64,000 nucleotides of DNA. Source: a virus. Lineage: Duplodnaviria; Heunggongvirae; Uroviricota; Caudoviricetes. This document shows positions 2,318-62,362 of the stretch, in pieces. The position numbers and the translations under genes are program-made. Numbering within the stretch: the first letter of the stretch is position 1; each line of letters starts with the position of its first letter. Location of the stretch: IMG/VR virus record IMGVR_UViG_2925891887_000001. One strand, given 5' to 3'. A model generated the notes under the pieces. The model did no database searches. It was not told the origin of the DNA and saw nothing but the letters and a program-made list of their open reading frames with translations.

Positions 2318-2338
2318 GATAGGTAAGTACTTATCTAT
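2318..2338. repeat. GTAAGTA-type intergenic palindrome (GATAGGTAAGTACTTATCTAT)
   Basis: Near-perfect dyad starting 8 nt after the stop codon. Member of a family of at least 15 copies (see findings). Confidence 0.8.
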
Positions 2339-2344
2339 TAACAT

Positions 2345-2375
2345 GGGCCACTATATTTAGTGGCCCTCTTTATTT
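2345..2375 (+). terminator. intrinsic terminator
   Basis: GGGCCACTA/TAGTGGCCC 9-bp stem, 4-nt loop, then TCTTTATTT. Confidence 0.7.
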
Positions 2376-2383
2376 GGTGATAC

Positions 2384-4699
2384 ATGATAAGCATCGTAAA
2401 ACGTAACGGCCAAACAGAGCCGTTATCCGAAGAAAAATACAACCGCGTCGTAATGTATGGCGTAGAAGGCATTCGTGGTGTAAGCGCATCCGCTGTAGCA
2501 ATGGGAGCTGCGGCCAGCATTTTTGATGGGATGACCACCAGCCAGTTGCATGAGGCTTTGGTTAAATCTGCCGCTGATTTGATCTCACCAGAAGCACCAA
2601 ATTACTCACAGGTGGCTGCCCGCCTGAACATTTTTAAAATCCGCAAAGATGCCTTCGGTCGTTACGACTATCCGAACTTCTACCAACACATTGTCAAGAA
2701 CGTTAACAAGGGCGTTTATGACAAGGATTTGCTGACACATTATTCGTTTGAAGAGATCGAAGAACTCGGCAATTACATTAAGCCTAAACGTGACGATCTT
2801 TTTGGCTATGCAGCTACGGTGCAGTTGCAAAGCAAATACCTCGTTCAAAACCGTGTTACTGGTGAGATTCATGAGGGGCCGCAACATATCTATATGCTGG
2901 TAGGCATGTGTCTGTTCCAGAATTGGGAAGACGACTGCGCTGGCAAAACACGTATGGAGATGGTCAAAGGTTTCTATGACGTTACAAGTACGTTCAAACT
3001 GTCTCTGCCCACACCAATCATGGCCGGCGTCCGTACTCCAACCCGTCAGTTCTCCAGTTGTGTGCTGATTGAGTCTGGCGATAGTCTGAAAGGGATTAGT
3101 GCAGCTTCAGCCGCAATTATCGACTACGTTTCACGTCGTGCTGGAATTGGTATTGGTTTTGGCCGTATCCGTGCGCTGGGCAGCGAGATCCGCAATGGTG
3201 AAGCCACCCATACCGGAGTTATTCCATTCCTGAAGCATTTCCAGACGGCTGTTAAATCTTGTTCGCAAGGTGGTGTTCGTGGTGGCGCAGCAACAGCGTT
3301 TTACCCGATCTGGCATCTTGAAGTTGAAAGTCTGCTGGTGGTGAAAAATAACCGTGGTATTGATGAAAACCGCGTTCGCCATCTTGATTACGGCGTCATG
3401 AGTAACCGTCTAATGTACCGTCGACTCGTCAGAAGCGAGAACATCACTCTGTTCAGCCCGCATGATGTGCCTGATATGTACGAAGCCTTCTTCACAGACC
3501 AGGAGCTGTTTGAAAAGCTGTACCATAAATACGAAGCCGATGATTCAATTCGCAAGAAGTCAGTACCTGCCATTGAGCTGTTCTCATCTCTGATGCAGGA
3601 ACGAGCGTCCACGGGCCGAATTTATATTGCGAACGTCGATCATATTAATGAGCATGGCGCTTTCATTCCTGCTCTTGCACCTGTCCGCCAGTCAAACCTG
3701 TGTATGGAGATCACCCTACCCACCCGTCCACTGGCATTTACCGACGACCCGAACGGTGAGATCGCGCTATGCACTTTATCCGCTTTTAACCTCGGAGCCA
3801 TCCGTTCACTGGAGTCTCTTAAAGAGGTGGCGTTCTATGCCGTTGCTGCACTGGATTCGTTACTGGATTATCAAGACTATCCGATGGAGGCAGCCGAAGT
3901 GCCTGCCAAAGCTCGTCGTAGCTTGGGAATTGGTGTAACCAACTTTGCTTATTACCTGGCAAAGAATGGCGTTCGTTATTCTGATACCGCTGGCAATAAA
4001 CTGGTGCATGAAACATTCGAAGCTATCCAGTATTACCTTCTTGATGCCAGCTGCCGACTTGCTGAAGCAAAAGGTGAGTGTGACTGGTTTGAGCAGACCA
4101 AGTACGCAATTGGTCAGTTGCCGATCGACCATTACCGTTCTTCATTAGACGAAAGTGGCGAAACCAACTTTGAGTTAAAGATGCCGTGGGAAGAACTGCG
4201 TGAACGTATTGCAAAATACGGCCTTCGCAACTCCACACTGACGGCACAAATGCCATGCGAGACTTCCAGCCAGATCACTAATTCCACCAACGGCATCGAA
4301 CCGCCTCGTGGCCCGGTGTCGGTGAAATCTTCTAAGGACGGCATCGTTAAGATGGTCGTGCCTGAGTTTGAAAAACTGAAGGAACAGTATGAATACCTGT
4401 GGGATATGCCGGACAACCGCGGCTATCTGACAAAGGTGGCGATCATCCAGAAGTTCTTTGACCAGGCTATTTCAGCCAATACCAACTATGACCCTTCTCG
4501 CTTTGAAGGCGATAAAGTCCCAATGATGACGCTACTGTCAGATTTGCTTCTCGCCTACAAGATGGGAGTTAAAACGCTTTACTACCACAACACCAGAGAT
4601 GGGGCAGGAAAGCGTGATGACGACGAACCGCAAAATCCACTGACGCAAGCTGTAGCCGTCGAGCCAGAAGATGAGTGCGACGGAGCCTGCAAAATCTGA
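2384..4699 (+). CDS. nrdA: ribonucleoside-diphosphate reductase class Ia alpha subunit
   Basis: 771 aa. N-terminal ATP-cone (VKRNGQTEPL), active-site NLCMEI and CTLSAFNL, SQITNSTNGIEPP, C-terminal CDGAC redox pair. Followed by nrdB. Confidence 0.95.
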   Translation: MISIVKRNGQTEPLSEEKYNRVVMYGVEGIRGVSASAVAMGAAASIFDGMTTSQLHEALVKSAADLISPEAPNYSQVAARLNIFKIRKDAFGRYDYPNFYQHIVKNVNKGVYDKDLLTHYSFEEIEELGNYIKPKRDDLFGYAATVQLQSKYLVQNRVTGEIHEGPQHIYMLVGMCLFQNWEDDCAGKTRMEMVKGFYDVTSTFKLSLPTPIMAGVRTPTRQFSSCVLIESGDSLKGISAASAAIIDYVSRRAGIGIGFGRIRALGSEIRNGEATHTGVIPFLKHFQTAVKSCSQGGVRGGAATAFYPIWHLEVESLLVVKNNRGIDENRVRHLDYGVMSNRLMYRRLVRSENITLFSPHDVPDMYEAFFTDQELFEKLYHKYEADDSIRKKSVPAIELFSSLMQERASTGRIYIANVDHINEHGAFIPALAPVRQSNLCMEITLPTRPLAFTDDPNGEIALCTLSAFNLGAIRSLESLKEVAFYAVAALDSLLDYQDYPMEAAEVPAKARRSLGIGVTNFAYYLAKNGVRYSDTAGNKLVHETFEAIQYYLLDASCRLAEAKGECDWFEQTKYAIGQLPIDHYRSSLDESGETNFELKMPWEELRERIAKYGLRNSTLTAQMPCETSSQITNSTNGIEPPRGPVSVKSSKDGIVKMVVPEFEKLKEQYEYLWDMPDNRGYLTKVAIIQKFFDQAISANTNYDPSRFEGDKVPMMTLLSDLLLAYKMGVKTLYYHNTRDGAGKRDDDEPQNPLTQAVAVEPEDECDGACKI

Positions 4700-4704
4700 C
4701 ATAT

Positions 4705-6894: not shown

Positions 6895-6962
6895 TTGTAG
6901 GTAGTTATCTATCTGTGTATATTGCATTTGCGCGTTAAATTTCTGAAACAACTATTCGTTTT

Positions 6963-8169: not shown

Positions 8170-8170
8170 T

Positions 8171-11869: not shown

Positions 11870-11889
11870 ATAGGTATATACTTACCTAT
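11870..11889. repeat. GTAAGTA-type palindrome (ATAGGTATATACTTACCTAT)
   Basis: Arms ATAGGTA/TACCTAT, ending 12 nt upstream of the methyltransferase ATG. Confidence 0.75.
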
Positions 11890-12499: not shown

Positions 12500-12596
12500 T
12501 CTGGTGTCTGTAATTAGCCTGCTTCTGTATATATAAATAACTACATATTAATTATTAATATACGGAAGAAGGCTGTTTTGTATCAGAGACTCCAGA
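12500..12596. repeat. large AT-rich imperfect palindrome, copy 1
   Basis: Outer arms TCTGGTGTCT/AGAGACTCCAGA. Inner arms AGCCTGCTTCTGTATATAT.../...ATATACGGAAGAAGGCT. The 23-nt core CCTGCTTCTGTATATATAAATAA is identical to 39079-39101. Confidence 0.85.
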
Positions 12597-12679: not shown

Positions 12680-12910
12680 ATGTCATACCCGACTAATGTC
12701 GTTGCGCTCGTAGAGAGCGATTTTCTGGCCCAGGCTCGTGAAATGATGAAAGATCGTGAGCAGGCTTTCAACTTGTACGAATGGGCAATTAAGTGCTTGC
12801 ATCTTGGCGAGCATCGCGAACTTGTTGAACAGCTTTTAGGTGAGTTGATCAATGAGGTGTTTGCCTTGAATGTTCAACTACATGGTAGAGAAAATAATCA
12901 ACCACAATGA
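12680..12910 (+). CDS. hypothetical protein (76 aa)
   Basis: ATG 12680 is preceded by AAGGAAACC. The listed start at 12656 lacks an RBS. Confidence 0.45.
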   Translation: MSYPTNVVALVESDFLAQAREMMKDREQAFNLYEWAIKCLHLGEHRELVEQLLGELINEVFALNVQLHGRENNQPQ

Positions 12911-13405
12911 TAGATAAGTACAAACTATTCATAAAGTGAATTGTAAGTGCTAAGATCTGATAGTTTCCAGTCGTAGACTGGAGACTCGACCTGATGGGTG
13001 GGGGTAAGCGTCACTGGCGTCAGGTTTAAAAAAGCTCACTACCAGCGTAGAACTGGTGCCGTTTAGGTGTCGGGGAAGGGGGAACCAAAGTGAGCAGAGA
13101 CAAGGGTCACTTTATGATTGTCGAGTCTGGGGTGTTTCGAGAGGTTGAATCCAGTACTCCCCTTCATAAAGTGTGGGAAGATCTCGGTTCTGGGGTGCTG
13201 TCATCCATAACTTCCCAAGTCTAAGCTGGCAGTAGACTTAGACCATAACTTTTCAGGTTATGAAACGACCAGGTTGGTGAGAGATTTTTATACTCACCTC
13301 CCTGGGAGAGTATTACCTGAAAAGACAACCTCTCACTTCGTTCGAGGTGAACTTCACTCACTTCGTTCGTTCAGTTCAGGTTTATAAAAACCTGTTCTGG
13401 GAAGT
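12911..13405 (+). other. highly structured non-coding region (candidate ncRNA or origin)
   Basis: No credible ORF. At least nine hairpins or long-range helices readable by eye, including GACTCGAC 12983-12990 with GTCGAGTC 13120-13127. Two diverged tandem units are marked by TTCATAAAGTG (12928, 13163) and AAGATCT (12952, 13178). Confidence 0.4.
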
Positions 13406-14083: not shown

Positions 14084-14231
14084 TAAGTAAGTGTTTACCT
14101 ATCATTTTAAATCATGTATCTTATCGGCGTCAGGATGACAATGTGTCGGTAAGACACAGTTCCAGGATGGAACGAGAAAGGCGGCTGGCAATCGCCAGCC
14201 GCAACTCTTTCTGACACTGGATGGAGTCCAC

Positions 14232-27485: not shown

Positions 27486-27490
27486 GTATT

Positions 27491-27506
27491 GTAAGTACAT
27501 ACTTAC
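27491..27506. repeat. GTAAGTA-type palindrome (GTAAGTACATACTTAC, perfect arms)
   Basis: Read directly. Lies 44 nt upstream of ATG 27550. Confidence 0.85.
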
Positions 27507-37000: not shown

Positions 37001-37635
37001 GCAAATACATCATCAACGTATCGTTTCAGACACGCGTAAATAAAACCACGCGCACGTTGGAAATCGCTGAGTCGTTCGGGCTTGGCCTGGACGAAAAAGA
37101 GTGGACGCTTTACGACAATCTGGAGCTGGAAGTGAAGCAGGGCGATGTGGTGTACATTACCGGCCAATCCGGTTCCGGCAAATCCGTTGTGCTGCGCGAG
37201 CTGCAACACCAGATGAAGGATGAAGGGCTATCTGTGGCCTCCATCGATGATTTTACCTTCGATAATGAGGTTAACGTCATTGACCAACTGGGCAAAACTA
37301 CCAGTGATGCGCTTGGGTTGTTATCTATGGCTGGTCTGAACGATGCATATCTGTTTGTTCGCAAGCCTTCTGAAATGTCAGACGGTCAGAAATATCGTCT
37401 CAAGATTGCCAAACTGATTGAGTCAGGCGCTAAAGTGTGGGCTGCTGACGAGTTCGGCGCTGTTCTCGACCGTGTAACCGCTCAGGTTGTGGCATCTAAC
37501 CTCCAGCGTGCCGCTCGAAAGGTTGGTGCGACGGTAATGGTGGCGACGACTCACGAAGACCTGAAGAACGCGCTGCGCCCGGATATGCAGATCACCAAGC
37601 ACTACAAAGAACGCGTGAAGGTGGAATATGCCTGA
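36997..37635 (+). CDS. stand-alone ABC-type ATPase
   Basis: Walker A ITGQSGSGKSV, signature-like MSDGQKYRLKIA, Walker B VWAADEFGAVLD, H-loop ATTHE. ATGA overlap. Confidence 0.7.
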   Translation: MSKYIINVSFQTRVNKTTRTLEIAESFGLGLDEKEWTLYDNLELEVKQGDVVYITGQSGSGKSVVLRELQHQMKDEGLSVASIDDFTFDNEVNVIDQLGKTTSDALGLLSMAGLNDAYLFVRKPSEMSDGQKYRLKIAKLIESGAKVWAADEFGAVLDRVTAQVVASNLQRAARKVGATVMVATTHEDLKNALRPDMQITKHYKERVKVEYA

Positions 37636-37882
37636 TTTGAAGATCGTAGAGCTGAAGCCATCGAAAGAGACTGATAACAACAACGTGGAAGTCATCCGCC
37701 TGCTGGAAGAAGCACTTCAGCACGCCAGAGAAGGAAAAAGCCAGAGCCTGGCGCTGTTGATGATCAACAACGACGGCAGTGTTCTTGATTGCTGGCATAA
37801 CGGCGGGCGCCCGTATGTCATGGTAGGGGCGATGGAGTCTCTTCGCCTGGATTTCATCAATGCCAATATCGAGCGCAGGTGA
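37628..37882 (+). CDS. hypothetical protein (84 aa)
   Basis: Overlaps the upstream gene by 8 nt and the downstream gene by 4 nt. Confidence 0.5.
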   Translation: MPDLKIVELKPSKETDNNNVEVIRLLEEALQHAREGKSQSLALLMINNDGSVLDCWHNGGRPYVMVGAMESLRLDFINANIERR

Positions 37883-38778
37883 TCGAGATGGCAGATATCA
37901 TCATCAAACGCTACCGCCCTGAAGAGTTTCCGCGTCATCTGGACTTTCTGGAGCGAATGACTGTCACAAAGGGAACTGTAGAGGACTGGCACGCTCTTAA
38001 GTCGCTTCACTACAAAACAGACGGCAAACCTTTCGCGCCAACTTACTATCGCTGCGAACTTGATGACCGTCTGGTGGGCGTCGTGGTTATGGCTTACCCG
38101 AAACTACTGCTGGCACCTCGCCACCGCATGTTTCCTAAGTTGAAACCAACCACTAATACCACCGTGGCTAACCAGTACTGGGGTCGGTACGTGAATAACA
38201 ACTTTGCGGTGATCAGTCGCTCAGTTGTGGATACTCAGTATCGTGGCGTAGGCGTCTCTTATCGAATGATTAACCTGGTTAGCAGGATGCATGACCGGCC
38301 AATCATTGAGATCCAGTCCTCGATGAGCAAATACAATCCCTTCGCCATGAAAGCAGGGTTTAAGTTCATCCGCCCTGAGCGACCGAAGAGCTATGAAAGT
38401 GCACTGCGTGTATTCCAGCGCCATTTCCGTTCCGACCCGGGTGATAACGAGGCGATCGTCAAAGAGTTGTTCGCAATGAGCGAGTCTCGTCGTCGCCGTG
38501 CACTGCGTGATCTGGTGGCGGACTACCACAAGAACAGTTCCCTGGCAAAAGCTGGGCGGAATCGTGGCACGACGATTCAGGACATTGCCGACAGTCTGGT
38601 GGACGAGGCCAGCATTGTGAAGCTGCTCAAGGACATTCACAACCTGAGCTTTACGTCTCCGTTGTATGGTGTGTACCGAAACCCTGACTTTGGCCGTCGA
38701 CTGCCTGACACGCTGCCACTGCTGGCATTCGACAAACAACCTTTGGATAAACCGTTAGAAATTGCTTTACCGGCATAA
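37879..38778 (+). CDS. GNAT-fold acyltransferase-like protein with a C-terminal extension
   Basis: FAVISRSVVDTQYRGVGVSYRMINLV matches GNAT motif A (R/Q-x-x-G-x-G/A). SKYNPFAMKAGFKFI matches motif B. Confidence 0.55.
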   Translation: MIEMADIIIKRYRPEEFPRHLDFLERMTVTKGTVEDWHALKSLHYKTDGKPFAPTYYRCELDDRLVGVVVMAYPKLLLAPRHRMFPKLKPTTNTTVANQYWGRYVNNNFAVISRSVVDTQYRGVGVSYRMINLVSRMHDRPIIEIQSSMSKYNPFAMKAGFKFIRPERPKSYESALRVFQRHFRSDPGDNEAIVKELFAMSESRRRRALRDLVADYHKNSSLAKAGRNRGTTIQDIADSLVDEASIVKLLKDIHNLSFTSPLYGVYRNPDFGRRLPDTLPLLAFDKQPLDKPLEIALPA

Positions 38779-38787
38779 GGATTTGCC

Positions 38788-39054
38788 ATGACGTTAACCG
38801 ATAAACAAAAGGACATCATCAAAACGCTCAATCTCGGTTATGAGCGAGGTCATCTACTTGACCTGGACGAATTGCTTGAAGTTTTGCCGTACAAGACAAC
38901 CAAGCAAAGTATCCAGTTCTCAATTCGCGCTCTGATAAAAAAGGGGCTGGTGGAGAAAGGGCATACGCGCCAACGCAGTGACAATCGCTATCACCGCCGA
39001 ACTCTTGGGTTAACTACTTTAGGTCGAGCCAAAGCGAAGTTACTGGTGATGTAA
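38788..39054 (+). CDS. small winged-helix-like DNA-binding protein
   Basis: LDELLEVLPYKTTKQSIQFSIRALIKKGLVEK resembles a MarR/wHTH recognition helix followed by a wing. Confidence 0.4.
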   Translation: MTLTDKQKDIIKTLNLGYERGHLLDLDELLEVLPYKTTKQSIQFSIRALIKKGLVEKGHTRQRSDNRYHRRTLGLTTLGRAKAKLLVM

Positions 39055-39056: not shown

Positions 39057-39154
39057 GGTCTGGGAGCTTATTTAAAGACCTGCTTCTGTATATATAAATA
39101 ATAAGTAACTTATTAAATATATACGGAAGCAGGCTTCGTAAGACATGCCAGACC
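39057..39154. repeat. large AT-rich imperfect palindrome, copy 2
   Basis: Outer arms GGTCTGG (39057-39063) and CCAGACC (39148-39154). Inner arms CCTGCTTCTGTATATATAAATAATAAGT/ACTTATTAAATATATACGGAAGCAGG. Paralogue of 12500-12596. Confidence 0.85.
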
Positions 39155-39168
39155 TAATTAAACACCCC

Positions 39169-39210
39169 AGAAAACAAGTTGGTTAGCAGATGCAGTAAAC
39201 AAGTTGTTTT
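39169..39210 (+). promoter_or_regulatory. two tandem operator-type sites upstream of the packaging genes
   Basis: AGAAAACAAGTTGGTT (39169-39184) and TAAACAAGTTGTTTT (39196-39210). The hairpin AGAGCGC/GCGCTCT (39211-39230) follows. Confidence 0.5.
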
Positions 39211-39249
39211 AGAGCGCATGGACGCGCTCTGTGTGTTTTAGAGGGATCT

Positions 39250-39882
39250 ATGACGGTCGAAAAAGACGAGGTAAAAACTCGCCTGACACCAGCGGAGTGG
39301 GCCGAAGCTGAAGCCAAATGGACGTCAGGCGAATATACACTCTCAAAGCTGGAGGAAGAGTACGGCATTCGTCGTGAAACACTCTCCAGACATTTCAAAA
39401 AGCGAGGATTAGAGAAAGGCGCGGACTCTGTTGGGAAGATGGTTCGTGAGTCTCTTAAATCTGACGCAGAGCTTCGCGCTAAAGCCCGTGCGGAAAAGAT
39501 AGAAGAACGTCGTACACGTTATGACGGCTGGGCGTATGCGTTGGGGCAGATGGTGATGGTCGAAGTCACTACGGCCAAACGTGAGGGTAAGCCTTTAGGG
39601 GCGATTGAGGATTCTCTCAAGAGCTTACAGAGAGCCAGTAATACCCTTGCAAAATGCTTTGAAGTTTCGTCCAAAGCATTGGGCATGGATCATGCGGAAA
39701 ATGACGAGGAAGAAATTCCGAACCTGGTATTTGGTGAGCTTACGCCTTCCCAGGTGGCGAAATTACGTCAGGAAGACGACGAGCCTGAAATCATCGATGA
39801 CGAATTGCTTGAGACGTTGGAAGAAGAAGCTCTAAGCGAATTTGATGCGACAGATGATGGAAGTGAAGGGGAGGACGAATAA
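39250..39882 (+). CDS. terminase small subunit
   Basis: Lies directly upstream of TerL and overlaps it (TAATG). N-terminal HTH-like YTLSKLEEEYGIRRETLSRHFKKRG. Acidic C-terminus. Confidence 0.6.
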   Translation: MTVEKDEVKTRLTPAEWAEAEAKWTSGEYTLSKLEEEYGIRRETLSRHFKKRGLEKGADSVGKMVRESLKSDAELRAKARAEKIEERRTRYDGWAYALGQMVMVEVTTAKREGKPLGAIEDSLKSLQRASNTLAKCFEVSSKALGMDHAENDEEEIPNLVFGELTPSQVAKLRQEDDEPEIIDDELLETLEEEALSEFDATDDGSEGEDE

Positions 39883-41138
39883 TGGCAATCCCGTCCTCGC
39901 TCAGTCTTGTGCAACTGCATTCTGGACAGATGAAAGTCTTCCAGTCTCCGCATCGATTTAAAGTTGTTTGTGCTGGTCGACGCTGGGGAAAATCCCGGTT
40001 GTCGATCTCCACTATTATTCGTGCGGCGGCAAAGGAAAAAAAGCAAAGGGTCTGGTATGTCGCTCCTACTTACCAGATGGCTCGCCAGATTTTGTGGGAC
40101 GATCTACAGGAAGTTCTGCCTCGTAAGTGGGTTAGGAAAAAGAACGACACCACGATGACAATCGTGTTGAAGAACGGTTCGGAGATCGCCCTCAAAGGTG
40201 CTGATAAGCCTGACACTCTGCGCGGCGTAGCGTTGCATTTTGTAGTGCTTGATGAATTTCAGGATATGAAGGCTGACACCTGGTACAAGGTGTTACGACC
40301 TACTCTTTCATCGACACGCGGCGGTGCACTGATCATTGGTACGCCAAAAGGCTTCTCGGAATTTCACAAACTGTGGACTATAGGCCAGAACGTAGAGCTG
40401 CAAAGAAAGGGACAGTGGAAGAGCTGGCAGTTTGTAACTGCCGATTCTCCGTTTGTGCCTACGGCGGAAATTGAAGCTGCTAAGAACGATATGGACCCCA
40501 AATCGTTCGCTCAGGAGTACCTGGCCAGCTTTGAGAACATGTCCGGGCGCGTTTACTACCCGTTCGATCGTAACGTGCATGTAAAACCGCTTCAGTTCAA
40601 CCCTCGGTTGCCTATATGGGTAGGGCAGGACTTCAACATTGACCCGATGTCTTCAGTAATTTTGCAACCTCAGCCAAATGGTGAGCTATGGGCAATTGAT
40701 GAATTGGTGCTCTTTTCCTCTAACACGGCAGAAGTTTGTGATGAGCTTGAGAGACGCTTCTGGCGCTGGAAATCACAGGTAACGGTATTTCCAGATCCGG
40801 CAGGTGCTTATCGCCAACATGCTCGTGGGGAGTCTGACGTAGACATATTCAAAGAGAAGGGATTCTTACGTGTCGATTATTCGAAAAAGCACCCGCCAAT
40901 TGCGGATCGTGTTAATGCTGTTAACCGAATGCTGATGTCCGCATCTGGAGATATCCGGCTGTATATCGATCCGAAGTGCAAGCATTTGATTGATTCACTG
41001 GAAAAAGTCATCTACAAGCCTGGAACACGAGATATGGATAAGACAGGTGGCATTGAGCATAGTGCAGACGCATTGGGCTATCCAGTACATCGTAGGTATC
41101 CAGTCAAAAACCGTGTTATTCTTGGTGGTTCTCGATAG
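39882..41138 (+). CDS. terminase large subunit
   Basis: Walker A-like VCAGRRWGKS and Walker B FVVLDEFQD. C-terminal nuclease-type acidic motifs GQDFNIDP and FPDPAG. Confidence 0.85.
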   Translation: MAIPSSLSLVQLHSGQMKVFQSPHRFKVVCAGRRWGKSRLSISTIIRAAAKEKKQRVWYVAPTYQMARQILWDDLQEVLPRKWVRKKNDTTMTIVLKNGSEIALKGADKPDTLRGVALHFVVLDEFQDMKADTWYKVLRPTLSSTRGGALIIGTPKGFSEFHKLWTIGQNVELQRKGQWKSWQFVTADSPFVPTAEIEAAKNDMDPKSFAQEYLASFENMSGRVYYPFDRNVHVKPLQFNPRLPIWVGQDFNIDPMSSVILQPQPNGELWAIDELVLFSSNTAEVCDELERRFWRWKSQVTVFPDPAGAYRQHARGESDVDIFKEKGFLRVDYSKKHPPIADRVNAVNRMLMSASGDIRLYIDPKCKHLIDSLEKVIYKPGTRDMDKTGGIEHSADALGYPVHRRYPVKNRVILGGSR

Positions 41139-41153
41139 GTAAGTAATTATCTA
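41134..41153. repeat. GTAAGTA-type palindrome (GATAGGTAAGTAATTATCTA)
   Basis: Overlaps the TerL stop, 12 nt upstream of the portal ATG. Confidence 0.7.
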
Positions 41154-41164
41154 AGGTTATTCAA

Positions 41165-42739
41165 ATGGAATTGAACGACAAACAAATTAAGGATCTGGTG
41201 GCGCGACGCCACCCGGAATACGAAAAGAAAAAAGAACATTGGGACTTCCTCGCCAGCACTTACGCTGGCGGGCGTGGTTGGTTTACAGACAATATCTTTC
41301 GTTACTTTAAAGAGGGAGATCAGGAGTTTAAGGAGCGAGTTGAACGTGCTTATCGCTTCAACCACACTCGTGAGGTGGTAAACCTCATCAACAAATATCT
41401 CTTTAAAGAAGACATTCATAGAAATATCGAAGAGGCACCAGAGCAGATCCGCAATTTCTGGAAACGTGCGACTCGCCAGAATGCCTCTATTGACTCATTT
41501 ATGGCCGCTATTGATTTGCAGTCGTCTATTTACGGTCGCATATGGGTTGTTGTCGATAGCACGATGAGTGGTGATGTTGAGTCAGTAGCTGACGAGAAAA
41601 AGAAAGATGCTCGCGCCTACGCCTACTGGATTTCACCTCAGCAAATGCTGGATGTGGCATGGGACGACGACGGGAATATGTTGTGGGCGTTAATTGTGGA
41701 AGTCGCTCGTGATGACGCAGATCCTTTTACTTCTACAGGTCAGGAATACCAACGTTATCGTCTGTGGACACAAAACGAGTGGTATCTGTTCCGTGAGGAA
41801 GTGAAGAAGGGCGCTGGTGGAGCAGGTCGCCGTCAGGCAAAAGTTATTTTAGAGGATAGCGGTGAGCATAATCTCGGCGTAGTTCCTGTGTTTCCTGTTG
41901 ATTGTATTGGAGAAAGTGAATCACCGTATTTCAGCCCATCGTTGATCGATGATATCGCTTATCTTGATCGTGCGGTTGCAAACTATCTGTCAAACCTTGA
42001 TGCCATTATTCAGGATCAGACATTTAGCCAGTTGGCTATACCGGTACAGTCGCTTTTACCTGGTGATGAAAACCACACTAAAGTGCTTGAAATGGGCACA
42101 AAGCGAGTCTTCACCTACGATTCTGAAGGTGGAAACCAGCCGTTTTATCTGTCACCAGACCCGAAACAAGCTCAGATGATCATCACTACGATTAAGACGG
42201 TGATTAACGAAATCTACCATTCAGTTGGTGTAGCTGGTGAGCGAACGAAGCAGGACAACGCACAGGGAATCGATAATTCATCTGGTGCCGCAAAAATGTA
42301 TGACTTCCAGCGTGTAAATAGCTTGCTTGTCACAAAAGCAGAGCGTCTGGAAAGGGCTGAACGCCAAATCATGCTACTGGTTGCGAAATGGATGGGGGCA
42401 GATCTGGACGAAGACCACTCTTTAATTGCGTATCCAGAAAGTTTCGATATTCGTGGCCTTACTGATGAATTTTCTGTTGCCGAGAAACTGTCATTACTTC
42501 AGGCACCGGACTCTGTACGTCGTCACCAGATGGAAATGCTTATTGAGAAGATTTTCCCGAACATTACTGAGGCGATGAAAAAGGAATTTGATAAAGATCT
42601 CTTGAATTTTCCTCCAAAAAATGATCTAAATACCCTTGAAAATAAGTCAGTACTTACTTATGATCGTGGTGCAGCCCAAGAAAGCGGGCAAGATCAACCC
42701 CGAGGGAATGGGGACTCATCTACTCAAGAGAACGAGTGA
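41165..42739 (+). CDS. portal protein
   Basis: 524 aa, immediately after TerL. Confidence 0.65.
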   Translation: MELNDKQIKDLVARRHPEYEKKKEHWDFLASTYAGGRGWFTDNIFRYFKEGDQEFKERVERAYRFNHTREVVNLINKYLFKEDIHRNIEEAPEQIRNFWKRATRQNASIDSFMAAIDLQSSIYGRIWVVVDSTMSGDVESVADEKKKDARAYAYWISPQQMLDVAWDDDGNMLWALIVEVARDDADPFTSTGQEYQRYRLWTQNEWYLFREEVKKGAGGAGRRQAKVILEDSGEHNLGVVPVFPVDCIGESESPYFSPSLIDDIAYLDRAVANYLSNLDAIIQDQTFSQLAIPVQSLLPGDENHTKVLEMGTKRVFTYDSEGGNQPFYLSPDPKQAQMIITTIKTVINEIYHSVGVAGERTKQDNAQGIDNSSGAAKMYDFQRVNSLLVTKAERLERAERQIMLLVAKWMGADLDEDHSLIAYPESFDIRGLTDEFSVAEKLSLLQAPDSVRRHQMEMLIEKIFPNITEAMKKEFDKDLLNFPPKNDLNTLENKSVLTYDRGAAQESGQDQPRGNGDSSTQENE

Positions 42740-42760
42740 TAAGTAACAAAAGGAATTTTT

Positions 42761-43648
42761 ATGAATCTGTGGCAAATGCTTTTGGCCCGTCGTGGTCTGA
42801 TGGATGTCGCTGAAGCGCATGAGCGTGGAGGCGCTGGCGGTGTAGCTGCTGATAATGAGCAGAGCACACAAGATCCTGACAAACAGGGTGAACAAAAAGA
42901 GCAGCCGAAGGGCGATGACGAATACGCTGGCATGACTCAGGAAGAGTTACTGGCCGAACTTCGTAAAACCAAGAAAGCTGGTGCTGAACTGCTGAAGGAG
43001 AACATGAAGCGCAAAGAGAAAGAGCGCACATTGGCCGATCAGCTTGCTCAGTACGGTGATATCGACCCGGCGCGTGCTCGCCAGCTTTTAGAAGCTGAAC
43101 AGGCCGCAGAAAATGCACGTCGTGAGGCGGAGCAAGCTGAACTGGAGCGTCGTGGTGAGTTCGATGCTGTTAAAAAACAGATGATCGAAGCACACCAGGC
43201 AGAGCTGGCACAGCGTGACGAACGTTATACAGCACTGGAAAGTGAAAACGCATCACTGAAATCTCAATTAGTCGAGATGACCGTGGGCGCTTCCTTCAGT
43301 AACTCTCTCTTCCTACGTGACAAAGTTCTGATGACCCCGGCAAAAGCCCGCGTGATCTACGGTTCTCATTTTGAAGTGGGTGAAGACGGTAGCGTAGTGG
43401 GTTATGACAAACCGGCAGGTCATAAAGAACGAGCTGTTCTGGTTGACGGTGAAGGTAAGCCGTTGCCGTTTGAATCCGCGATTGAACGCATTGTGCGGGC
43501 AGATCCGGAAGCTGACGCATTGATGCGTAGCGAAGCCAAGCAGGGTGTAGGCTCACATTCCAAATCGACCTACACAATATCCCAACCGAAGAACAAGTCG
43601 ACTATGGATAAGTTGGCCTCCGGTCTGGGGAAAATTGGACTTAAGTAA
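42761..43648 (+). CDS. putative scaffolding protein
   Basis: Lies between the portal and capsid genes. Long E/A/K/R-rich coiled coil. Confidence 0.5.
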   Translation: MNLWQMLLARRGLMDVAEAHERGGAGGVAADNEQSTQDPDKQGEQKEQPKGDDEYAGMTQEELLAELRKTKKAGAELLKENMKRKEKERTLADQLAQYGDIDPARARQLLEAEQAAENARREAEQAELERRGEFDAVKKQMIEAHQAELAQRDERYTALESENASLKSQLVEMTVGASFSNSLFLRDKVLMTPAKARVIYGSHFEVGEDGSVVGYDKPAGHKERAVLVDGEGKPLPFESAIERIVRADPEADALMRSEAKQGVGSHSKSTYTISQPKNKSTMDKLASGLGKIGLK

Positions 43649-48128: not shown

Positions 48129-48136
48129 CTCAATTG

Positions 48137-48152
48137 GTAAGTATATACTTAC
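48137..48152. repeat. GTAAGTA-type palindrome (GTAAGTATATACTTAC, perfect 16 bp)
   Basis: Read directly. Confidence 0.9.
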
Positions 48153-48202: not shown

Positions 48203-48949
48203 ATGTCTAATACCCATGTAAAAAACATCAAACTTGGTGCCTGTAAGGTGTCGTTTGGTGGTGTGGATTTGGGTTACACCAAAGGTGGTGTTCAGGTTGA
48301 AATCGCAACCGAAACGCTGAAAGTGACCGTAGACCAGCTGGGCCAGACCACGATCTCCGAGCTGATCCAGGGCCGCAACATCACCATTACTGCGCCGCTG
48401 GCTGAATCCGTGTTGAAAAACATGGTCGATCTGATGCCAGGTTCCACGCTGAGTTCTGGCGAAGATACCGTAACCATCACGTCTGCGCAGGGAGTGAACC
48501 TGATCGACGTTGCGAAAGAGTTGGTGCTGACCCCGCAGGATGCGACGGATTATGTTCTGACCATCCCTAAAGCAGCAACCGCGGGTAACTTCACCATGAC
48601 CTACCAGTCTGACGACGTTCGCGTGTTCTCAGTTGAGTTTTCCGCTTACCCGGACGACGCTGGCGTGTTGGGGAAAATGAGCCTCCCAAAGCCGGTTGAG
48701 AGCGTCACGCTGACCCCGTCTTCACCGACCGTAAAAGTGGGCACTAAAGTTCAATTGAGCGCAACCTTCACCCCGGCCGATGCAACCAATAAGACTGGCG
48801 TGTGGAGCTCTGATGCGACTGATAAAGCGACCGTAGATCAGAACGGACTGGTAACTGGTAAAGCTGTCGGTTCAGCCAATATCACCTTCACAACTAATGA
48901 CGGTGCCAAGAAGGCGACCAAAGCCGTCTCTGTAACTGCCGCAAGCTAA
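48203..48949 (+). CDS. major tail protein with a C-terminal Ig-like (Big_2) domain
   Basis: ATG 48203 follows AAAGGAG. The C-terminal VTLTPSSPTVKVGTKVQLSATFTPADATNKTGVWSSD...ATVDQNGLVTGKAVGSANI is an Ig-like domain, as in lambda gpV. Lies upstream of G/GT. Confidence 0.75.
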   Translation: MSNTHVKNIKLGACKVSFGGVDLGYTKGGVQVEIATETLKVTVDQLGQTTISELIQGRNITITAPLAESVLKNMVDLMPGSTLSSGEDTVTITSAQGVNLIDVAKELVLTPQDATDYVLTIPKAATAGNFTMTYQSDDVRVFSVEFSAYPDDAGVLGKMSLPKPVESVTLTPSSPTVKVGTKVQLSATFTPADATNKTGVWSSDATDKATVDQNGLVTGKAVGSANITFTTNDGAKKATKAVSVTAAS

Positions 48950-49011
48950 ATTGTGATAACCCAAGAGGCCCATGGATGGGCCTCTGTATGAGTTTAAAAG
49001 GATTTTAACCA

Positions 49012-54261: not shown

Positions 54262-54459
54262 CTATCGACTGCCCCGACCGGGGCAGTCTCACAAGGATGT
54301 GAGATGGAAAGACAAACGTTTAATTGGTATCCAGATTACGAATCTGAAAAGAGCGTAAAACCGAATGTAACGGTACTTAATTTTGGTGATGACTACGAGC
54401 AGCGACAGGCTCAAGGTCTTAATCGTATTAAAGAAGAATGGTCGGGTAATGACTCCAAC

Positions 54460-54963
54460 TTATTGATAGTGTTTTATGTTCAGATAATGCCCGATGACTT
54501 TGTCATGCAGCTCCACCGATTTTGAGAACGACAGCGACTTCCGTCCCAGCCGTGCCAGGTGCTGCCTCAGATTCAGGTTATGCCGCTCAATTCGCTGCGT
54601 ATATCGCTTGCTGATTACGTGCAGCTTTCCCTTCAGGCGGGATTCATACAGCGGCCAGCCATCCGTCATCCATATCACCACGTCAAAGGGTGACAGCAGG
54701 CTCATAAGACGCCCCAGCGTCGCCATAGTGCGTTCACCGAATACGTGCGCAACAACCGTCTTCCGGAGCCTGTCATACGCGTAAAACAGCCAGCGCTGGC
54801 GCGATTTAGCCCCGACATAGCCCCACTGTTCGTCCATTTCCGCGCAGACGATGACGTCACTGCCCGGCTGTATGCGCGAGGTTACCGACTGCGGCCTGAG
54901 TTTTTTAAGTGACGTAAAATCGTGTTGAGGCCAACGCCCATAATGCGGGCAGTTGCCCGGCAT
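54460..54963 (-). CDS. insB: IS1 InsB' (expressed as InsAB' by a -1 frameshift)
   Basis: 167-aa ORF overlapping the insA end. The A6C slippery run (TTTTTT on the plus strand near 54903) lies in the overlap. Confidence 0.9.
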
Positions 54964-55157
54964 CCAACGCCATTCATGGCCATATCAATGATTTTCTGGT
55001 GCGTACCGGGTTGAGAAGCGGTGTAAGTGAACTGCAGTTGCCATGTTTTACGGCAGTGAGAGCAGAGATAGCGCTGATGTCCGGCGGTGCTTTTGCCGTT
55101 ACGCACCACCCCGTCAGTAGCTGAACAGGAGGGACAGCTGATAGAAACAGAAGCCAC
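54882..55157 (-). CDS. insA: IS1 InsA
   Basis: [40 protein letters not shown]..., 91 aa. Confidence 0.95.
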
Positions 55158-55423: not shown

Positions 55424-55448
55424 GATAAGTAAGTACTAATTTACTATC
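55424..55448. repeat. GTAAGTA-type palindrome (GATAAGTAAGTACTAATTTACTATC)
   Basis: Imperfect dyad between genes M and L. Confidence 0.6.
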
Positions 55449-55499
55449 ATTGTGGCGCTGACAGGATGTTAGCGCCTACTTATTTCAAGGATGAAACAA

Positions 55500-60500: not shown

Positions 60501-62313
60501 GGCTGCAAGAGATGAAGCGGCGGCTCTTATTGCTAAGGAAAGCGAGGCTCGTGTTGAAGGCGATGCTGCAAACGCTAAACAACTGGAAGTGTTGCAGTCA
60601 ACGGTAGAGGAAAGCTCCGCTGCCGTTGAAGAAATGAAAAAGACGGTTGCAGAGGTCGATCGTGCCAGTGCAGAACTGACTACGAACATTGAAGCGTTAG
60701 CTAAAACAAATATTGACCTGGCTCTTCGTCAAGATGAAGACCAGCACAAGCAGATGGTCAATAACGCGAAGATCGCAACAACACAGAAAACCTTTGCTGA
60801 TGATATGTCCGCAATGGCCACGAAGGTTGAGGAAATTCGCGTAGAAATTGGCGAAGACATTAAGGCCAGTATTCTGGAAGAGTCCACCGCTCGTGCCGAT
60901 GGCGATGAAGCGTTGGCAAAGCGTGTCACTCAGCTGCAATCTAAGTTTGAAGGAGATATCAGCGCGGCGATTAGTACAGAGCAGGAGGCTCGTACATCTG
61001 CCGATGAAGCTCTGACGACACAAATCACTCAGCTTGAGTCGAAAGTAAGCAACGATATCGTCGCAGCTATTAAGGAAGAGCAAGAAGCCCGAGCAACGGA
61101 AGATTCGGCTCTGGCAAGCCAGATCACCCAACTTCAGGCAAAAGTTGATGATGATATTTCTGCTGCAATACGCAGTGAGCAGGAGGCCCGAGCAAGCGGG
61201 GACTCTGCGTTAGCCAAACAAATAAACCAGCTTCAGTCAAAGGTTGACGGTGATATATCCGCTGCCATCACTCAGGAGCAGGAGGCCAGAGCAAGTGCTG
61301 ACCAGGCGCTCTCACGAGAAATTAACAGCCTGCGAGCACAAACCGGAACTGATATTGCCGCAGCGGTTGCTGTAGAGACAAAAGCAAGGACTGATGCCGA
61401 TAGTGCATTGTCTACCCAGATTACGTCTCTTACAGCAAAAGCTAATGATCTCAAGGCGTCTCTTGCCAGAGAAACAACGGCTCGTGCAGATGGTGATACC
61501 GCTTTAACAAAAGAGGTTTCAAGTTTAAAAGCACAGACAGCGAAAGATATTAGTGCGGCCGTTGCAGTTGAAACGCAGGCTCGAACTGATGCTGACTCGG
61601 CGTTGTCGTCTCAGATCACCAAGCTGACCTCTCAATACAAAGAGGATATTAAAGCGGCTGTAGCAACCGAAACGAAAACGCGTACAGAGCAAGATGCTGC
61701 ATTGGCGACTCAAATCACAAACTTAGAGTCTCAAACGGCAGCCAACATTTCCGCGGCGGTCACAACTGAAACGAAAGCGAGAACGCAGGCAGATAATGCT
61801 CTGAGTGGGCGAATCGATACTCTGAAAGCAGAGGTGAATGGAAATACCGCGACAATTCAACAGCAGGCAACAGCTATTGCTGATACCAACAAAAAAGTGT
61901 CAACCGCGTGGACGTTGAAAATGGAGACTTCAACGAGCGGAGGGCAGAAGTATGTTGCCGGTATTGCGCTTGGTATTGACACCACTGGGCTATCTCAGTT
62001 TTTGGTTCAGGCGGACAGGTTTGGTTTGGTCAACTCTGTTAACGGGAAGATCACAACGCCATTTGTTATCGAAAACAGTATCGCCTATATGAATGGAGCG
62101 TATATCAAGGATGGCACAATCACCAATGCAAAAGTAGGCGATCTGCAATCTACCAATTTTGTTAGCGGTAGATCTGGATGGCGGTTCGGCAAAAATGGAA
62201 CGCTTGAGATCAACGGTAATAGCGGCGGCAATGGGCGATTGGTTATAAATGGTCAGCGGATTGACGTTTATGACGATAACAACGTCCTACGAGTAAGAAT
62301 TGGCCGTCTGTGA
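57586..62313 (+). CDS. tail tip/host specificity protein J (lambda gpJ-like) with an extended coiled-coil repeat region
   Basis: N-terminus is collinear with lambda gpJ (TP.EA.D...S...A.I.D...EG.I.G). FN3-like segment near 59800-60060. Ten tandem repeats of about 33 aa at 60877-61850. ATG 57586 follows AAGGA. Confidence 0.9.
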   Translation: MEQFKKKKLPLFIAGAGGKKSSKSSSRTPVEADDTVNSRAMAAILDLLGEGVIGGLVNGARSIFIDDLPIVNEDGSSNFSGITWDFRDGSQDQTPMSGFDFVETPKSVNIQLKKTHYVTVSIDNDEADRVRVIMKFPSLRSIDKKTGDTNGTTVEYKFQIANGDSTFVDVVAEGEKSVGIKLTAKKTGVYYRSYELKLPKPGRAYKVRVVRITDDNSSQYLYNDTWVDSIGEIVDTPMNYPNSVLVGLKVNSEQFGSTMPSRSYLVRGLKIRVPSNYNESSNTYAGVWDGTFKLLSSSNPAWILFDLLTNARYGLGQYVSESMIDLGQLYQIGRYCDEEVDDGFGGKEKRFAINTQITSRQDAYRLIQDIAGAFRGMVFWAGGMVNIMQDSPSDPVMMFTNSNVKDGLFTYKGSARKDRPSVALVTYNNKEDGYKQNIEYVEDQDAMRRYGERKTEVVAFGCTSRGQAHRVGLWLLYTARMESDVITFTAGLDASFLMPGETVLIQNKYRAGKRNSGRIVAFTKNSVTLDAPVSLAKGGCFIRILNQEGKIVERDVLETGENITKVTFSKALSSAETPVLNGVWTITEPDLEPMRVRIVNIAQGETPGSFDITAVENNPSKYEAIDNGATLIPQNTTVLDPTYSKPSNLQITEGTYLSSPGNLSVKLTATWEGKSPEYWISWRRSDENNVSNWQSARVTEEQYEIVNVAENGRYDFQLYAVSFNGKKTEIISTVYQVLGTMTPPDAPTSLTAVGDYRNVILNWVNPDSVDLDHINVYASQTNNLDTAKLIAESASTTFTHAGLGDSETWYYWVRASNKRGMLSPPNSNLGTEATTRDVLSFLTGKITSSELGQALLEDINSKASQEAVDELNEHINQSVESLEGAVNDVKEDIAELDKQFSDNLADFEIKFNERSDALENAQTELKGEVSATIDKVNEAFEKIDATDAAIVEIENTVSEHDKALANTVEAIKAARDEAAALIAKESEARVEGDAANAKQLEVLQSTVEESSAAVEEMKKTVAEVDRASAELTTNIEALAKTNIDLALRQDEDQHKQMVNNAKIATTQKTFADDMSAMATKVEEIRVEIGEDIKASILEESTARADGDEALAKRVTQLQSKFEGDISAAISTEQEARTSADEALTTQITQLESKVSNDIVAAIKEEQEARATEDSALASQITQLQAKVDDDISAAIRSEQEARASGDSALAKQINQLQSKVDGDISAAITQEQEARASADQALSREINSLRAQTGTDIAAAVAVETKARTDADSALSTQITSLTAKANDLKASLARETTARADGDTALTKEVSSLKAQTAKDISAAVAVETQARTDADSALSSQITKLTSQYKEDIKAAVATETKTRTEQDAALATQITNLESQTAANISAAVTTETKARTQADNALSGRIDTLKAEVNGNTATIQQQATAIADTNKKVSTAWTLKMETSTSGGQKYVAGIALGIDTTGLSQFLVQADRFGLVNSVNGKITTPFVIENSIAYMNGAYIKDGTITNAKVGDLQSTNFVSGRSGWRFGKNGTLEINGNSGGNGRLVINGQRIDVYDDNNVLRVRIGRL

Positions 62314-62342
62314 TGGTGGAAAAAAAATTTTATATCGGTAAA

Positions 62343-62362
62343 AATAGGTAGGTATATACTTA
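62343..62362. repeat. GTAAGTA-type palindrome (AATAGGTAGGTATATACTTA)
   Basis: Lies between J and the tail fibre gene. Confidence 0.6.

Follow-up and report, generated by a model that had tools for sequence, protein, structure and literature searches.

A repeated AT-rich palindrome at the gene junctions of the window (the whole stretch of DNA analysed, 64,000 nucleotides) is a real element, specific to the SSU5-like family of phage-plasmids and conserved across genera. The 64-kb window represents an E. coli SSU5-like phage-plasmid, with 98–99% identity to phage CMS-2020a and ~98% to Cyrano/pLF82. On comparison with known systems, the element most likely works like the dispersed C1 operators of P1 or the stoperators of mycobacteriophages, and a candidate binder can be named. 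There is about an even chance that it is a double-stranded operator on which the phage-plasmid's own XRE-family helix-turn-helix repressor (CYRAN_45 type), acting as a symmetric dimer, silences the lytic genes. No earlier description of the element was found in the literature searched.

Refined from the window copies, the element is an 18-bp palindrome, TARGTAAGT|ACTTACYTA, laid out as TARGTA, six bases and TACYTA, with TAxx units recurring at a 4-nt period. With at most two mismatches, 14 copies lie in the 9.6 kb of intergenic DNA, where shuffles confined to intergenic sequence predict 1.36; the same shuffles predict 0.00 copies at zero mismatches (5 observed) and 0.09 at one or fewer (8 observed). 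The coding DNA (~56 kb, 88% of the window) wholly contains just three copies at two mismatches or fewer. Palindromes are thus not equally dense in coding regions, the pattern that the original prediction had held would speak against it; at this threshold the element is ~27 times denser in intergenic DNA of the window. A search of the window with GTAAGTANNTACTTAC at two mismatches or fewer gave 11 matches (0.09 expected), and a regular expression for the arms gave 18 matches at 12 loci, every one intergenic or at a gene boundary (0.21 in shuffles). Motif discovery, proposed earlier as a check together with enrichment, recovers the motif when expectation maximization (EM) is run with the site frequency held fixed. 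Unconstrained EM collapsed to an AT-rich periodic model and did not recover it, and exact k-mer over-representation in the window did not reveal it, because the motif is degenerate.

All 16 positions at which copies had been placed bear the described sequence, and one further good copy, absent from that list, lies in the 3' end of the portal gene. The copies are given below without a strand and sorted as full members, weaker members (one degenerate arm or a shifted register), half-sites and a degenerate copy, together with the neighbouring hairpins, which are on the plus strand; the GC hairpins of 21–23 nt were located by reading the sequence.

2320–2337: full copy TAGGTAAGTACTTATCTA at the RuvC/NrdA junction, 10 nt past the stop codon and in the spacer of a promoter-like TTGATA-17-TAACAT; orthologues in Cyrano, SSU5 and pMT1
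2345–2366, plus strand: GC hairpin with T-run, terminator-like, 8 nt past the 2320 copy; its 5' arm holds the predicted start of the overlapping promoter
6898–6915: weaker, variant copy TAGGTA-GT-TATCTA, arms spaced by 2 nt rather than 6, 4 nt past the MazG stop codon
7032–7053: weaker copy ATAAGTGGTTACTTATCTT upstream of ThyX, with two possible registers and one good arm in each; cleaner in Cyrano and SSU5
11871–11888: full copy TAGGTATATACTTACCTA, 12 nt upstream of Dam, beginning at the last −10 base of a promoter-like TTGCCA-17-(TG)AAAAAT
12909–12926: half-site that overlaps the hyp80 stop codon and has just the left arm, TAGATA
14084–14101: full copy TAAGTAAGTGTTTACCTA, overlapping the RNase H stop codon
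18135–18152: full copy TAGGTAAATACTTACTTA, 1 nt past the DUF4942 stop codon and upstream of Ead
27488–27505: weaker copy ATTGTAAGTACATACTTA, left arm degenerate, right after a terminator and upstream of hyp107; identical sequence in SSU5
35616–35633: full copy TAAGTAAGTGATTACTTA in the divergent UvsW/ParB119 region, with 18 nt separating it from the start of ParB119 and its first base closing a TATAAT hexamer; kept in five clades
39095–39112: degenerate copy, with 2 mismatches, lying at the AT-rich centre of a large GC-clamped palindrome distinct from the element, CCTGCTTCTGTATATA...TATACGGAAGCAGG
41136–41153: full copy TAGGTAAGTAATTATCTA at TerL/portal, its first three bases being the TerL stop codon, 11 nt before the portal start; kept from E. 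coli to Aeromonas and Acinetobacter
42643–42660: additional good copy TAAGTCAGTACTTACTTA in the 3' end of the portal gene, filling the spacer of TTGAAA-17-TATGAT, from which the scaffold and capsid genes would be transcribed
42740–42757: half-site, TAAGTA only, immediately past the portal stop codon
44559–44576: full copy TAGATAAGTAATTATCTA, 10 nt past the capsid gene stop codon
44584–44604, plus strand: terminator hairpin GGGTGGGC-TATAC-GCCCACCC with T-run, 8 nt past the 44559 copy; kept in SSU5, pMT1 and Klebsiella
48134–48151: full copy TTGGTAAGTATATACTTA at Tc1/major tail protein, with a promoter-like TTGAAT-18-TATACT whose −10 lies at the centre of the copy
55426–55443: weaker copy TAAGTAAGTACTAATTTA at the M/L junction, right arm degenerate, within a promoter-like TGGATA-17-TATCAT
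55454–55476, plus strand: GC hairpin, 11 nt past the M/L copy
62345–62362: full copy TAGGTAGGTATATACTTA at the J/tail fibre junction; a hairpin GGCGGGC...GCCCGCC begins at 62365

The association with stop codons is borne out: 9 of 15 sites begin within 10 nt of the upstream stop codon and four overlap it. A position 10–65 nt upstream of the next start, which had also been claimed, applies to 10 of the 15 and fails for the remaining sites. A terminator does sometimes intervene before the next gene, the GC hairpins at 2345, 44584, 55454 and 62365 each following a site. Five of the 11 sigma-70-like plus-strand matches overlap sites, and in a PWM promoter scan the best promoters sit in varying registers with respect to the site. 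By promoter score, the plus strand exceeds the mirror strand weakly in the enterobacterial genomes (p = 0.03–0.10) and not at all in Acinetobacter; credible promoter overlap is limited to a subset of sites.

Conservation in relatives, likewise put forward as a check, is evident: orthologous copies occupy the same junctions in Cyrano, SSU5, pMT1, Klebsiella, Aeromonas and Acinetobacter, and the core GTAAG-NN-CTTAC is constant across them. In Cyrano, 17 of 17 regex loci are intergenic. The Aeromonas element carries ~20 copies in a genome of 55% GC, and the Acinetobacter element ~34, of which 30 are intergenic; the Acinetobacter version is a contiguous 18–24 bp palindrome with a conserved centre, and several fully identical palindromic copies occur in one genome. 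The TerL/portal and helicase/ParB copies form islands of conservation in E. coli, Salmonella, Klebsiella, Aeromonas and Acinetobacter. Among 2.9 million viral contigs, 41 of 44 exact matches were SSU5-like. The copies were also considered as joints of mosaic recombination; the one mosaic segment checked, in the major tail protein gene, breaks near 48300, inside the gene and not at the site. Tyrosine-recombinase core sites resemble the element in outline only (inverted arms around a 6–8 bp crossover region), and the identical palindromic copies within one Acinetobacter genome would invite deletions if they were such cores.

The arms are under purifying selection, and the centre drifts freely. 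Divergence of the arms is 0.6% against Cyrano and 9.0% against SSU5, as compared with 3.7% and 21.2% for intergenic DNA outside the sites and 14% and 17.9% for the central 6 bp. Variation in one arm is independent of that in the other: positions 3 and 16 combine as GC 8, GT 13, AC 9 and AT 10 times (Fisher p = 0.75), so nothing selects for pairing. The inner pairs are Watson–Crick no more often than by chance, and counts of G.U against A.C on the sense strand (11/10, 21/19, 25/17, 17/8) give no clear G.U excess. The element and its flanks are mirror-symmetric, with equal −10 likeness on the downstream and upstream sides. Constrained arms, a free centre, independence of the arms and symmetric flanks together fit a dimeric DNA-binding protein, and neither an RNA hairpin nor a directional promoter fits this sequence behaviour.

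That the element acts as RNA, whether as an AU-rich hairpin, an RNase III/RNase E processing site or a translational operator by the ribosome-binding site, is therefore very improbable. All copies do lie in transcribed intergenic spacers, often just before a ribosome-binding site or GC hairpin, and a constrained stem with a free loop predicts the same conservation pattern. Nonetheless, an RNA stem would be expected to covary, and here A–C combinations are as common as G–C or A–T; moreover, the stem sequence itself is kept from Acinetobacter to E. coli, and its 7 bp of AU pairs are much shorter than RNase III substrates, which are typically far longer. The RNase III-type processing hairpin suggested by the original prediction is contradicted by the same independence of the arms and chance-level pairing.

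A promoter, or promoter core, for a modified or phage-directed RNA polymerase is hardly credible either. P1 late promoters combine an inverted repeat with a −10, and many copies here end in TA with a T four bases on, which is −10-like (TAnnnT); in Acinetobacter, copies often abut TATAAT and the element encodes a sigma-70-family protein. However, the mirror side carries a −10-like signal of the same strength, the TerL/portal copy lies 11 nt from the start codon with no room for a leader, and in the repressor promoter a copy stands past the −10. The E. coli element lacks a homologue of the Acinetobacter sigma-70-family gene, and a phage sigma factor was rejected as the reader. The modified-polymerase promoter proposed earlier thus fares no better than the hairpin. 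What endures of those proposals is their outline, a regulator-binding site with kept arms and a free centre that is symmetric and family-specific; the versions that were named do not. In particular, the sites lie in both early and late modules and at the lysogeny repressor promoter, and the sigma-70-like promoters that they overlap are silent in the lysogen, which points to a repressor rather than to the late activator or antiterminator suggested before.

Circumstantial evidence points to the CYRAN_45-type XRE repressor as the binder. Its gene adjoins the integrase, outside the window. Homologues occur in 994 plasmid records, against 965 for the portal gene, with the same host distribution. 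In E. coli, the repressor promoter reads TTTACA-16-TAATAT followed by GGTAAGCACTTACC, which places an element copy at ~+1. The corresponding copies in pHCM2-type elements and Klebsiella differ from that of E. coli by one base, the Aeromonas homologue has a copy upstream, and the Acinetobacter and divergent Klebsiella repressor promoters have half-sites only. While the proteins overall are 56–78% identical, the recognition-helix region GYKNxNNLSLIKSGKIPLP is nearly invariant, which matches an unchanged operator. The predicted fold of the repressor resembles those of dimeric XRE repressors (C-proteins, HigA, Stl, SinR and the 434 and Salmonella phage repressors). Repressor homologues were also sought in unrelated elements, for co-occurring sites, and 55 of 55 matches lay on contigs of a length typical of SSU5-like elements or on short fragments. 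The immunity region has no tandem operator cluster over a divergent lytic promoter; the 251-bp Cyrano spacer holds one full site and half-sites.

Expression in the LF82 lysogen bears on this assignment in both directions. By RNA-seq, the XRE repressor is ~10-fold above background, and where a good promoter overlaps a site, the genes behind it stay at or close to background, the major tail protein being at ~2× (PMC9928086 S1 table). Expression also drops across site-marked junctions, from 55 to 6 at hyp30/hyp31 and from 32 to 7.5 at ASCH/SbcD (PMC9928086 S1 table). Conversely, CYRAN_34, a gene downstream of a site, is expressed, which counts against the repressor; the CYRAN_81 homologue, downstream of the 12909 half-site, is expressed as well (PMC9928086 S1 table). 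In bulk RNA-seq, genes downstream of sites were not significantly more induced than others (p = 0.11), and no significant induction or step change was found at site junctions.

A different phage-plasmid regulator, active in lytic growth, is an unlikely binder but has several observations on its side. Such a regulator could be a Cro-like shut-off protein, a late regulator or the 88-aa DNA-binding protein encoded before terS; it would turn off the repressor via the site in its promoter and elsewhere time the early and late operons. The site at ~+1 of the repressor promoter suits a Cro-like protein equally, sites stand ahead of early and late operons alike, and the operons most induced in macrophages lie directly downstream of site-bearing promoters. 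Furthermore, phage SSU5, which was isolated as virions, lacks the repressor–integrase block and with it the XRE repressor, yet it retains all the sites. Against this, no other recognisable family-wide DNA-binding protein was found: the FljA-like protein was not detected in Acinetobacter or in the Aeromonas stretch searched, nor the 88-aa protein in Acinetobacter. Good sigma-70-like promoters overlapped by sites are also silent in the lysogen, which calls for a factor present in that state.

It is rather improbable that the copies are parS-like loading sites from which ParB-family proteins (encoded at 35652–37000 of the window) spread or slide, starting at ~20–30 sites, to silence, organise or segregate the DNA. 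Proteins of this family do act from dispersed sites, as KorB does on RK2 and SopB on N15, and their sites are short palindromes known in dispersed sets (the OB sites of RK2; N15). In each of the five clades a copy directly precedes the first ParB gene, residues 7–154 of ParB119 resemble Spo0J and the GGEHRWRAA box is kept, and the Acinetobacter version, contiguous and with its centre conserved, has the form of such a site. On the other hand, the enterobacterial centre varies freely, unlike parS, NBS and OB sites, and the large palindrome beside the ParA operon is a better centromere candidate. Inspection of the alignment shows no canonical ParB helix-turn-helix past the ParB119 N-domain. Because its expression in the LF82 lysogen lies at the detection floor, ParB119 cannot serve as silencer or partition protein in the plasmid state (PMC9928086 S1 table). 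A conserved copy also stands at the ParB119 promoter itself, an observation that counts against assignment to the repressor.

Broader still, and quite improbable, is a genome-wide nucleoprotein system for which the sites, more than simple operators, would be loading or anchoring points: either the conserved ParB–ParB–ABC ATPase operon (upstream of terS) would act on ~20–30 sites in lytic growth, or looping bridged by the repressor would fold the 110-kb plasmid into silence. If so, the fast-changing central 6 bp (14% against a background of 3.7% between 98%-identical genomes) would tune each junction.

With the XRE repressor as the binder, we infer repression and roadblock action along the following lines. 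A dimer would contact the outer 6–8 bp of each half and leave the central 4–6 bp uncontacted. In the plasmid (lysogenic) state, repressor would occupy ~15 sites in the window and ~20 genome-wide. A site over a sigma-70 promoter would block initiation, candidate promoters being those upstream of nrdA, dam, parB119, scaffold/capsid, the major tail protein and L. A site without a promoter, as at TerL/portal, might instead serve as a roadblock at an operon junction, often followed within a few bases by an intrinsic terminator. The repressor would curb its own synthesis via the copy at ~+1 of its own promoter.

SSU5-like phage-plasmids comprise ~1000 sequenced plasmids, including Yersinia pestis pMT1, Salmonella Typhi pHCM2-type elements and Klebsiella and Acinetobacter elements, and published surveys report frequent carriage of resistance genes by phage-plasmids. 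Nothing on how these elements control lysis versus plasmid maintenance was described in the literature searched. A family-wide operator would provide a map of the repressed transcription units together with a concrete candidate for the master repressor; its short, testable sequences would also offer a route to induce, cure or lock these elements.

Several known systems resemble the element in part. KorB OB sites of RK2 and the N15 centromeres are dispersed short palindromes whose ParB-family binding protein is also a transcriptional repressor, and ParB-family genes adjoin one copy here; unlike in those systems, the plasmid state leaves the ParB-family gene silent and the centre of the site varies. 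The lambdoid Cro/CI operators (lambda, 434, P22) are likewise palindromes, of 14–18 bp, in which the outer half-sites are conserved and the uncontacted centre varies; they are read by a dimeric helix-turn-helix protein whose fold class is that of the candidate repressor, and they too include a copy at the repressor promoter, but they stand three in tandem at two promoters, whereas here single sites are spread over ~20–34 junctions. The stoperators of L5 and other Cluster A mycobacteriophages come closer in arrangement: one short site of the repressor type recurs tens of times across early and late regions, nearly always in short intergenic spacers and often at or over stop codons, with one copy at the immunity-region promoter and a proposed role in silencing prophage read-through. 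Stoperators are, however, asymmetric 13-bp sites in fixed orientation to transcription and are bound demonstrably by gp71 in L5, whereas the present element is an orientation-free 18-bp palindrome with a candidate binder. P1 is likewise a plasmid prophage, in which a single repressor holds each of the lytic operons by way of dispersed operators, more than a dozen in number; many of these overlap sigma-70 promoters, and the repressor gene is autoregulated. The C1 operators differ in being asymmetric and 17 bp long, C1 has no relationship to XRE helix-turn-helix proteins, and P1 controls its late genes indirectly, by means of Lpa, whereas in the present element sites also occur within the structural module. 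The design of many dispersed operators known from P1 and mycobacteriophage L5 would thereby extend to a third, unrelated group, with a palindromic site.

The dispersed palindrome at gene junctions is strongly over-represented in the intergenic DNA of the window (~12% of its length), and the sequence is present at every coordinate at which the original prediction had placed a copy. The unit takes its clearest form in Salmonella phage SSU5, as an 18-bp palindrome, TARGTAAGT/ACTTACYTA, whose arms (TARGTA and TACYTA) are separated by a 6-bp centre (positions 7–12); most seeming spacing variants in the window keep this frame but have one weakened arm. The pattern GTAAGTANNTACTTAC with up to two mismatches matched the window 11 times (0.09 expected), and an arm-based regular expression matched 18 times (0.21 in shuffles); its 12 loci are each intergenic or at the end of a gene. 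Relative to shuffled intergenic DNA, the element occurs 5 versus 0.00 times with no mismatch, 8 versus 0.09 with at most one and 14 versus 1.36 with at most two, and an EM search seeded with all intergenic 20-mers ranked it just under A-rich low-complexity models. Palindrome density in coding DNA is not comparable, as only three copies with at most two mismatches lie entirely within genes against the 14 intergenic ones. The predicted overlap with, or proximity to, stop codons is also seen: the element starts no more than 10 nt from the preceding stop codon in 9/15 sites and overlaps it in four.

Individual element copies (window coordinates)
42643, coding copy at the 3' end of the portal gene, conserved in SSU5 and Yersinia pestis plasmid pMT1
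12909 and 42740, half-sites
39095, degenerate copy within a separate larger palindrome

The coding copy at 42643 appears functional.

The window is 98–99% identical to Escherichia phage CMS-2020a, ~98% to phage Cyrano (phage-plasmid pLF82 of E. coli LF82) and ~80% to SSU5 and Klebsiella phage-plasmids. Its gene map, transferred from the Cyrano annotation, starts with an SbcC/RuvC/Nrd early region, continues through a block of small genes, a block on the minus strand, the ParB-ABC operon and the terminase, and ends with the tail fibre. An 819-bp stretch lying between the tape-measure gene and gene M (54262–55080) has no counterpart in the mapped Cyrano genes, and from ~48300 onward the gene for the major tail protein is mosaic (48300–48980, 55–80% identity; flanks 98–100%).

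Conservation in relatives, suggested as a check, was found in Cyrano, SSU5, pMT1 and elements of Acinetobacter and Aeromonas. All 17 regular-expression loci of Cyrano are intergenic (17/17). The 16 of SSU5 lie at matching junctions (TerL–portal, capsid–Ig, Tc1–tail tube, J–fibre, RuvC–NrdA, DUF4942–Ead, upstream of Dam, RNase H and others), as do 8 within 41 kb of pMT1 of Y. pestis CO92. A portal search retrieved 965 related plasmids from Klebsiella, Escherichia, Acinetobacter, Enterobacter, Yersinia, Salmonella, Aeromonas and others. The motif is TTAGTAAGCGCTTACTAA in an Acinetobacter element (portal 52% identical; ~34 copies, 30 intergenic) and TCAGTAARTNNTTACTGA in an Aeromonas element (55% GC; ~20 copies). 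The core GTAAG-NN-CTTAC is constant across clades and the outer bases are clade-specific. In five-clade alignments of the TerL–portal and helicase–ParB junctions, the site is an island of identity in a diverged spacer. When 2.9 million viral contigs were searched for exact matches, 41/44 loci proved SSU5-like; the element is therefore a motif of the SSU5 family and no general host-factor site. In Aeromonas pKAM329_1, Dam sites flank many copies, either on one side or on both (GATCAGTAA...TTACTGATC), so methylation could alter binding in that clade.

Compared with Cyrano, the window has differences at 1/156 arm positions, 11/78 centre positions and 3.7% of other intergenic DNA; compared with SSU5, divergence is 9.0%, 17.9% and 21.2%, respectively. 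By these comparisons the arms are under constraint and the centre is not. Across the 13 copies compared with Cyrano, the centre has changed at 14% of positions in genomes ~98% identical, ~4x the rate of other intergenic DNA, with nearly invariant arms; a hot spot, conversion between copies or selection could account for this. The original prediction had also offered an RNase III-type hairpin and a promoter for a modified RNA polymerase. Pairing in RNA or a cruciform predicts covariation of position 3 (R) with position 16 (Y), and none was found among 43 distinct copies (GC 8, GT 13, AC 9, AT 10; p = 0.75); Watson-Crick pairs at inner positions are no more frequent than expected under independence, and the sense strand has no clear excess of G.U over A.C. 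As for a promoter, the extended logo is symmetric, the terminal TA and its flank give a -10-like signal of the same strength on either side, and the TerL–portal copy, whose first bases are the TerL stop codon, ends 11 nt upstream of the portal ATG. Tests of selection, pairing, direction and room thus disfavour both readings and jointly point to a site in double-stranded DNA that is recognised by a symmetric dimer. The remaining proposal, a binding site for a phage regulator, fits this pattern, and the element is probably a DNA operator for a dimer encoded by the phage-plasmid.

The candidate binder is CYRAN_45, an XRE helix-turn-helix repressor encoded outside the window next to a tyrosine integrase; that this repressor reads the element we consider an even chance. 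Its homologues, on 994 plasmids, have a host profile that matches the portal gene (identity 38% in Acinetobacter, 31% in Aeromonas). In E. coli, the XRE promoter (TTTACA-16-TAATAT) is directly followed by GGTAAGCACTTACC, the element core, at ~+1; pHCM2-type and Klebsiella plasmids have an equivalent layout with one core base changed, the Aeromonas gene has a copy 62–77 nt upstream, and Acinetobacter and a divergent Klebsiella clade have half-sites only. The recognition-helix stretch is nearly invariant with overall identity of just 56–78%, in keeping with the unchanged operator, and the predicted structure (pLDDT 72, moderate confidence) resembles dimeric XRE repressors. No tandem operator cluster was found in the immunity region. 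Virion-isolated SSU5 retains the sites without the repressor-integrase block, which fits a lysis-prone deletion variant; the block (Cyrano 39144–43038) is missing at SSU5 ~41776–42761.

In RNA-seq of the LF82 lysogen, the XRE gene is expressed at ~10x background (PMC9928086, S1 table). Sites read by a ParB/KorB-like protein have a low probability: the ParB operon promoter also carries a conserved copy, but ParB119, the first ParB-family gene of that operon, is at the detection floor in the same lysogen (PMC9928086, S1 table). Among the other lysogen-expressed genes scanned, none has a recognisable DNA-binding domain. Where a good sigma-70-like promoter overlaps a site, the genes downstream show background or near-background expression in the lysogen, and several such operons are among those most induced in macrophages (PMC9928086).

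Site-overlapping sigma-70-like promoters and downstream genes
TTGAAA-17-TATGAT, scaffold/capsid
TTGATA-17-TAACAT, nrdA
TTGCCA-17-AAAAAT, dam
TTTACA-17-TAGTAT, hypothetical-protein gene hyp60
TTGAAA-17-TATCAT, membrane protein gene
TTGAAT-18-TATACT, major tail protein (partial exception, ~2x background)

Drops from expressed to silent genes coincide with sites at hyp30–hyp31 and ASCH–SbcD (PMC9928086). Credible promoter overlap is confined to some sites, promoters score only marginally higher on the plus strand than on the mirror strand, and bulk RNA-seq gave no significant global contrast. A GC hairpin follows four copies by 3–11 nt (2345, 44584, 55454 and 62365), with clear T-runs at 2345 and 44584. 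At sites overlapped by a promoter, the predicted transcription start lies within or next to the 5' arm of this hairpin; incoming upstream transcripts would then end there and site-initiated transcripts would have an incomplete stem, a speculative compact terminator-operator-promoter arrangement.

Other motifs and genes were noticed. Also dispersed is another motif, (CCAAT-like box)-AGAAAACAA(C)TTGTTTAA; it includes a small palindrome (AAACAA/TTGTTT), lies 20–45 nt before the start codon in many small early-region genes and in terS, and tends toward spacers without the 18-bp element. A large GC-clamped palindrome, CCTGCTTCTGTATATA...TATACGGAAGCAGG, has three copies per genome, one immediately after the ParA-RelE-hyp30 operon, a centromere-like position; a degenerate 18-bp element lies inside the AT-rich centres at 39080 and Cyrano 31160.

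Positions of other motifs
Second dispersed motif, window 14979, 15708, 16422, 19380, 23003, 24837, 26602, 27086, 28753 and 39170; variant near 4760
Large GC-clamped palindrome, window 12519–12580 and 39080–39135; Cyrano 31160–31215

An annotated transcriptional regulator (31327–31851, minus strand), confined to enterobacterial clades, matches Pfam 'Repressor of phase-1 flagellin' over its full length (FljA-like, E = 3e-80); Salmonella FljA targets fliC mRNA. Immediately upstream of terS, the operon at 35652–39054 encodes a pair of ParB_N-domain proteins, an ABC-type ATPase, a small ORF, another ABC-like protein and an 88-aa protein that faintly matches a LexA-like winged helix. Elements of E. 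coli, Salmonella, Klebsiella, Yersinia, Aeromonas and Acinetobacter all carry this operon, which is silent in the LF82 lysogen; its ParB119 retains the GGEHRWRAA box and has no obvious canonical helix-turn-helix. Acinetobacter plasmid CP116441 carries a sigma-70-family gene (3078–3743) between a MoxR/CobS-like gene and dnaE; the E. coli element lacks a homologue.

In the papers searched on SSU5 and phage-plasmid regulation, the element is nowhere described. Dispersed phage repressor sites are known from P1 (C1 operators) and from mycobacteriophage L5 (stoperators), and these are its closest counterparts in function; in shape it is a Cro/CI-type operator. Because it has neither the asymmetry and orientation of L5 stoperators nor the tandem clustering of lambdoid operators, the element is placed among dispersed phage repressor operators, outside both named families.
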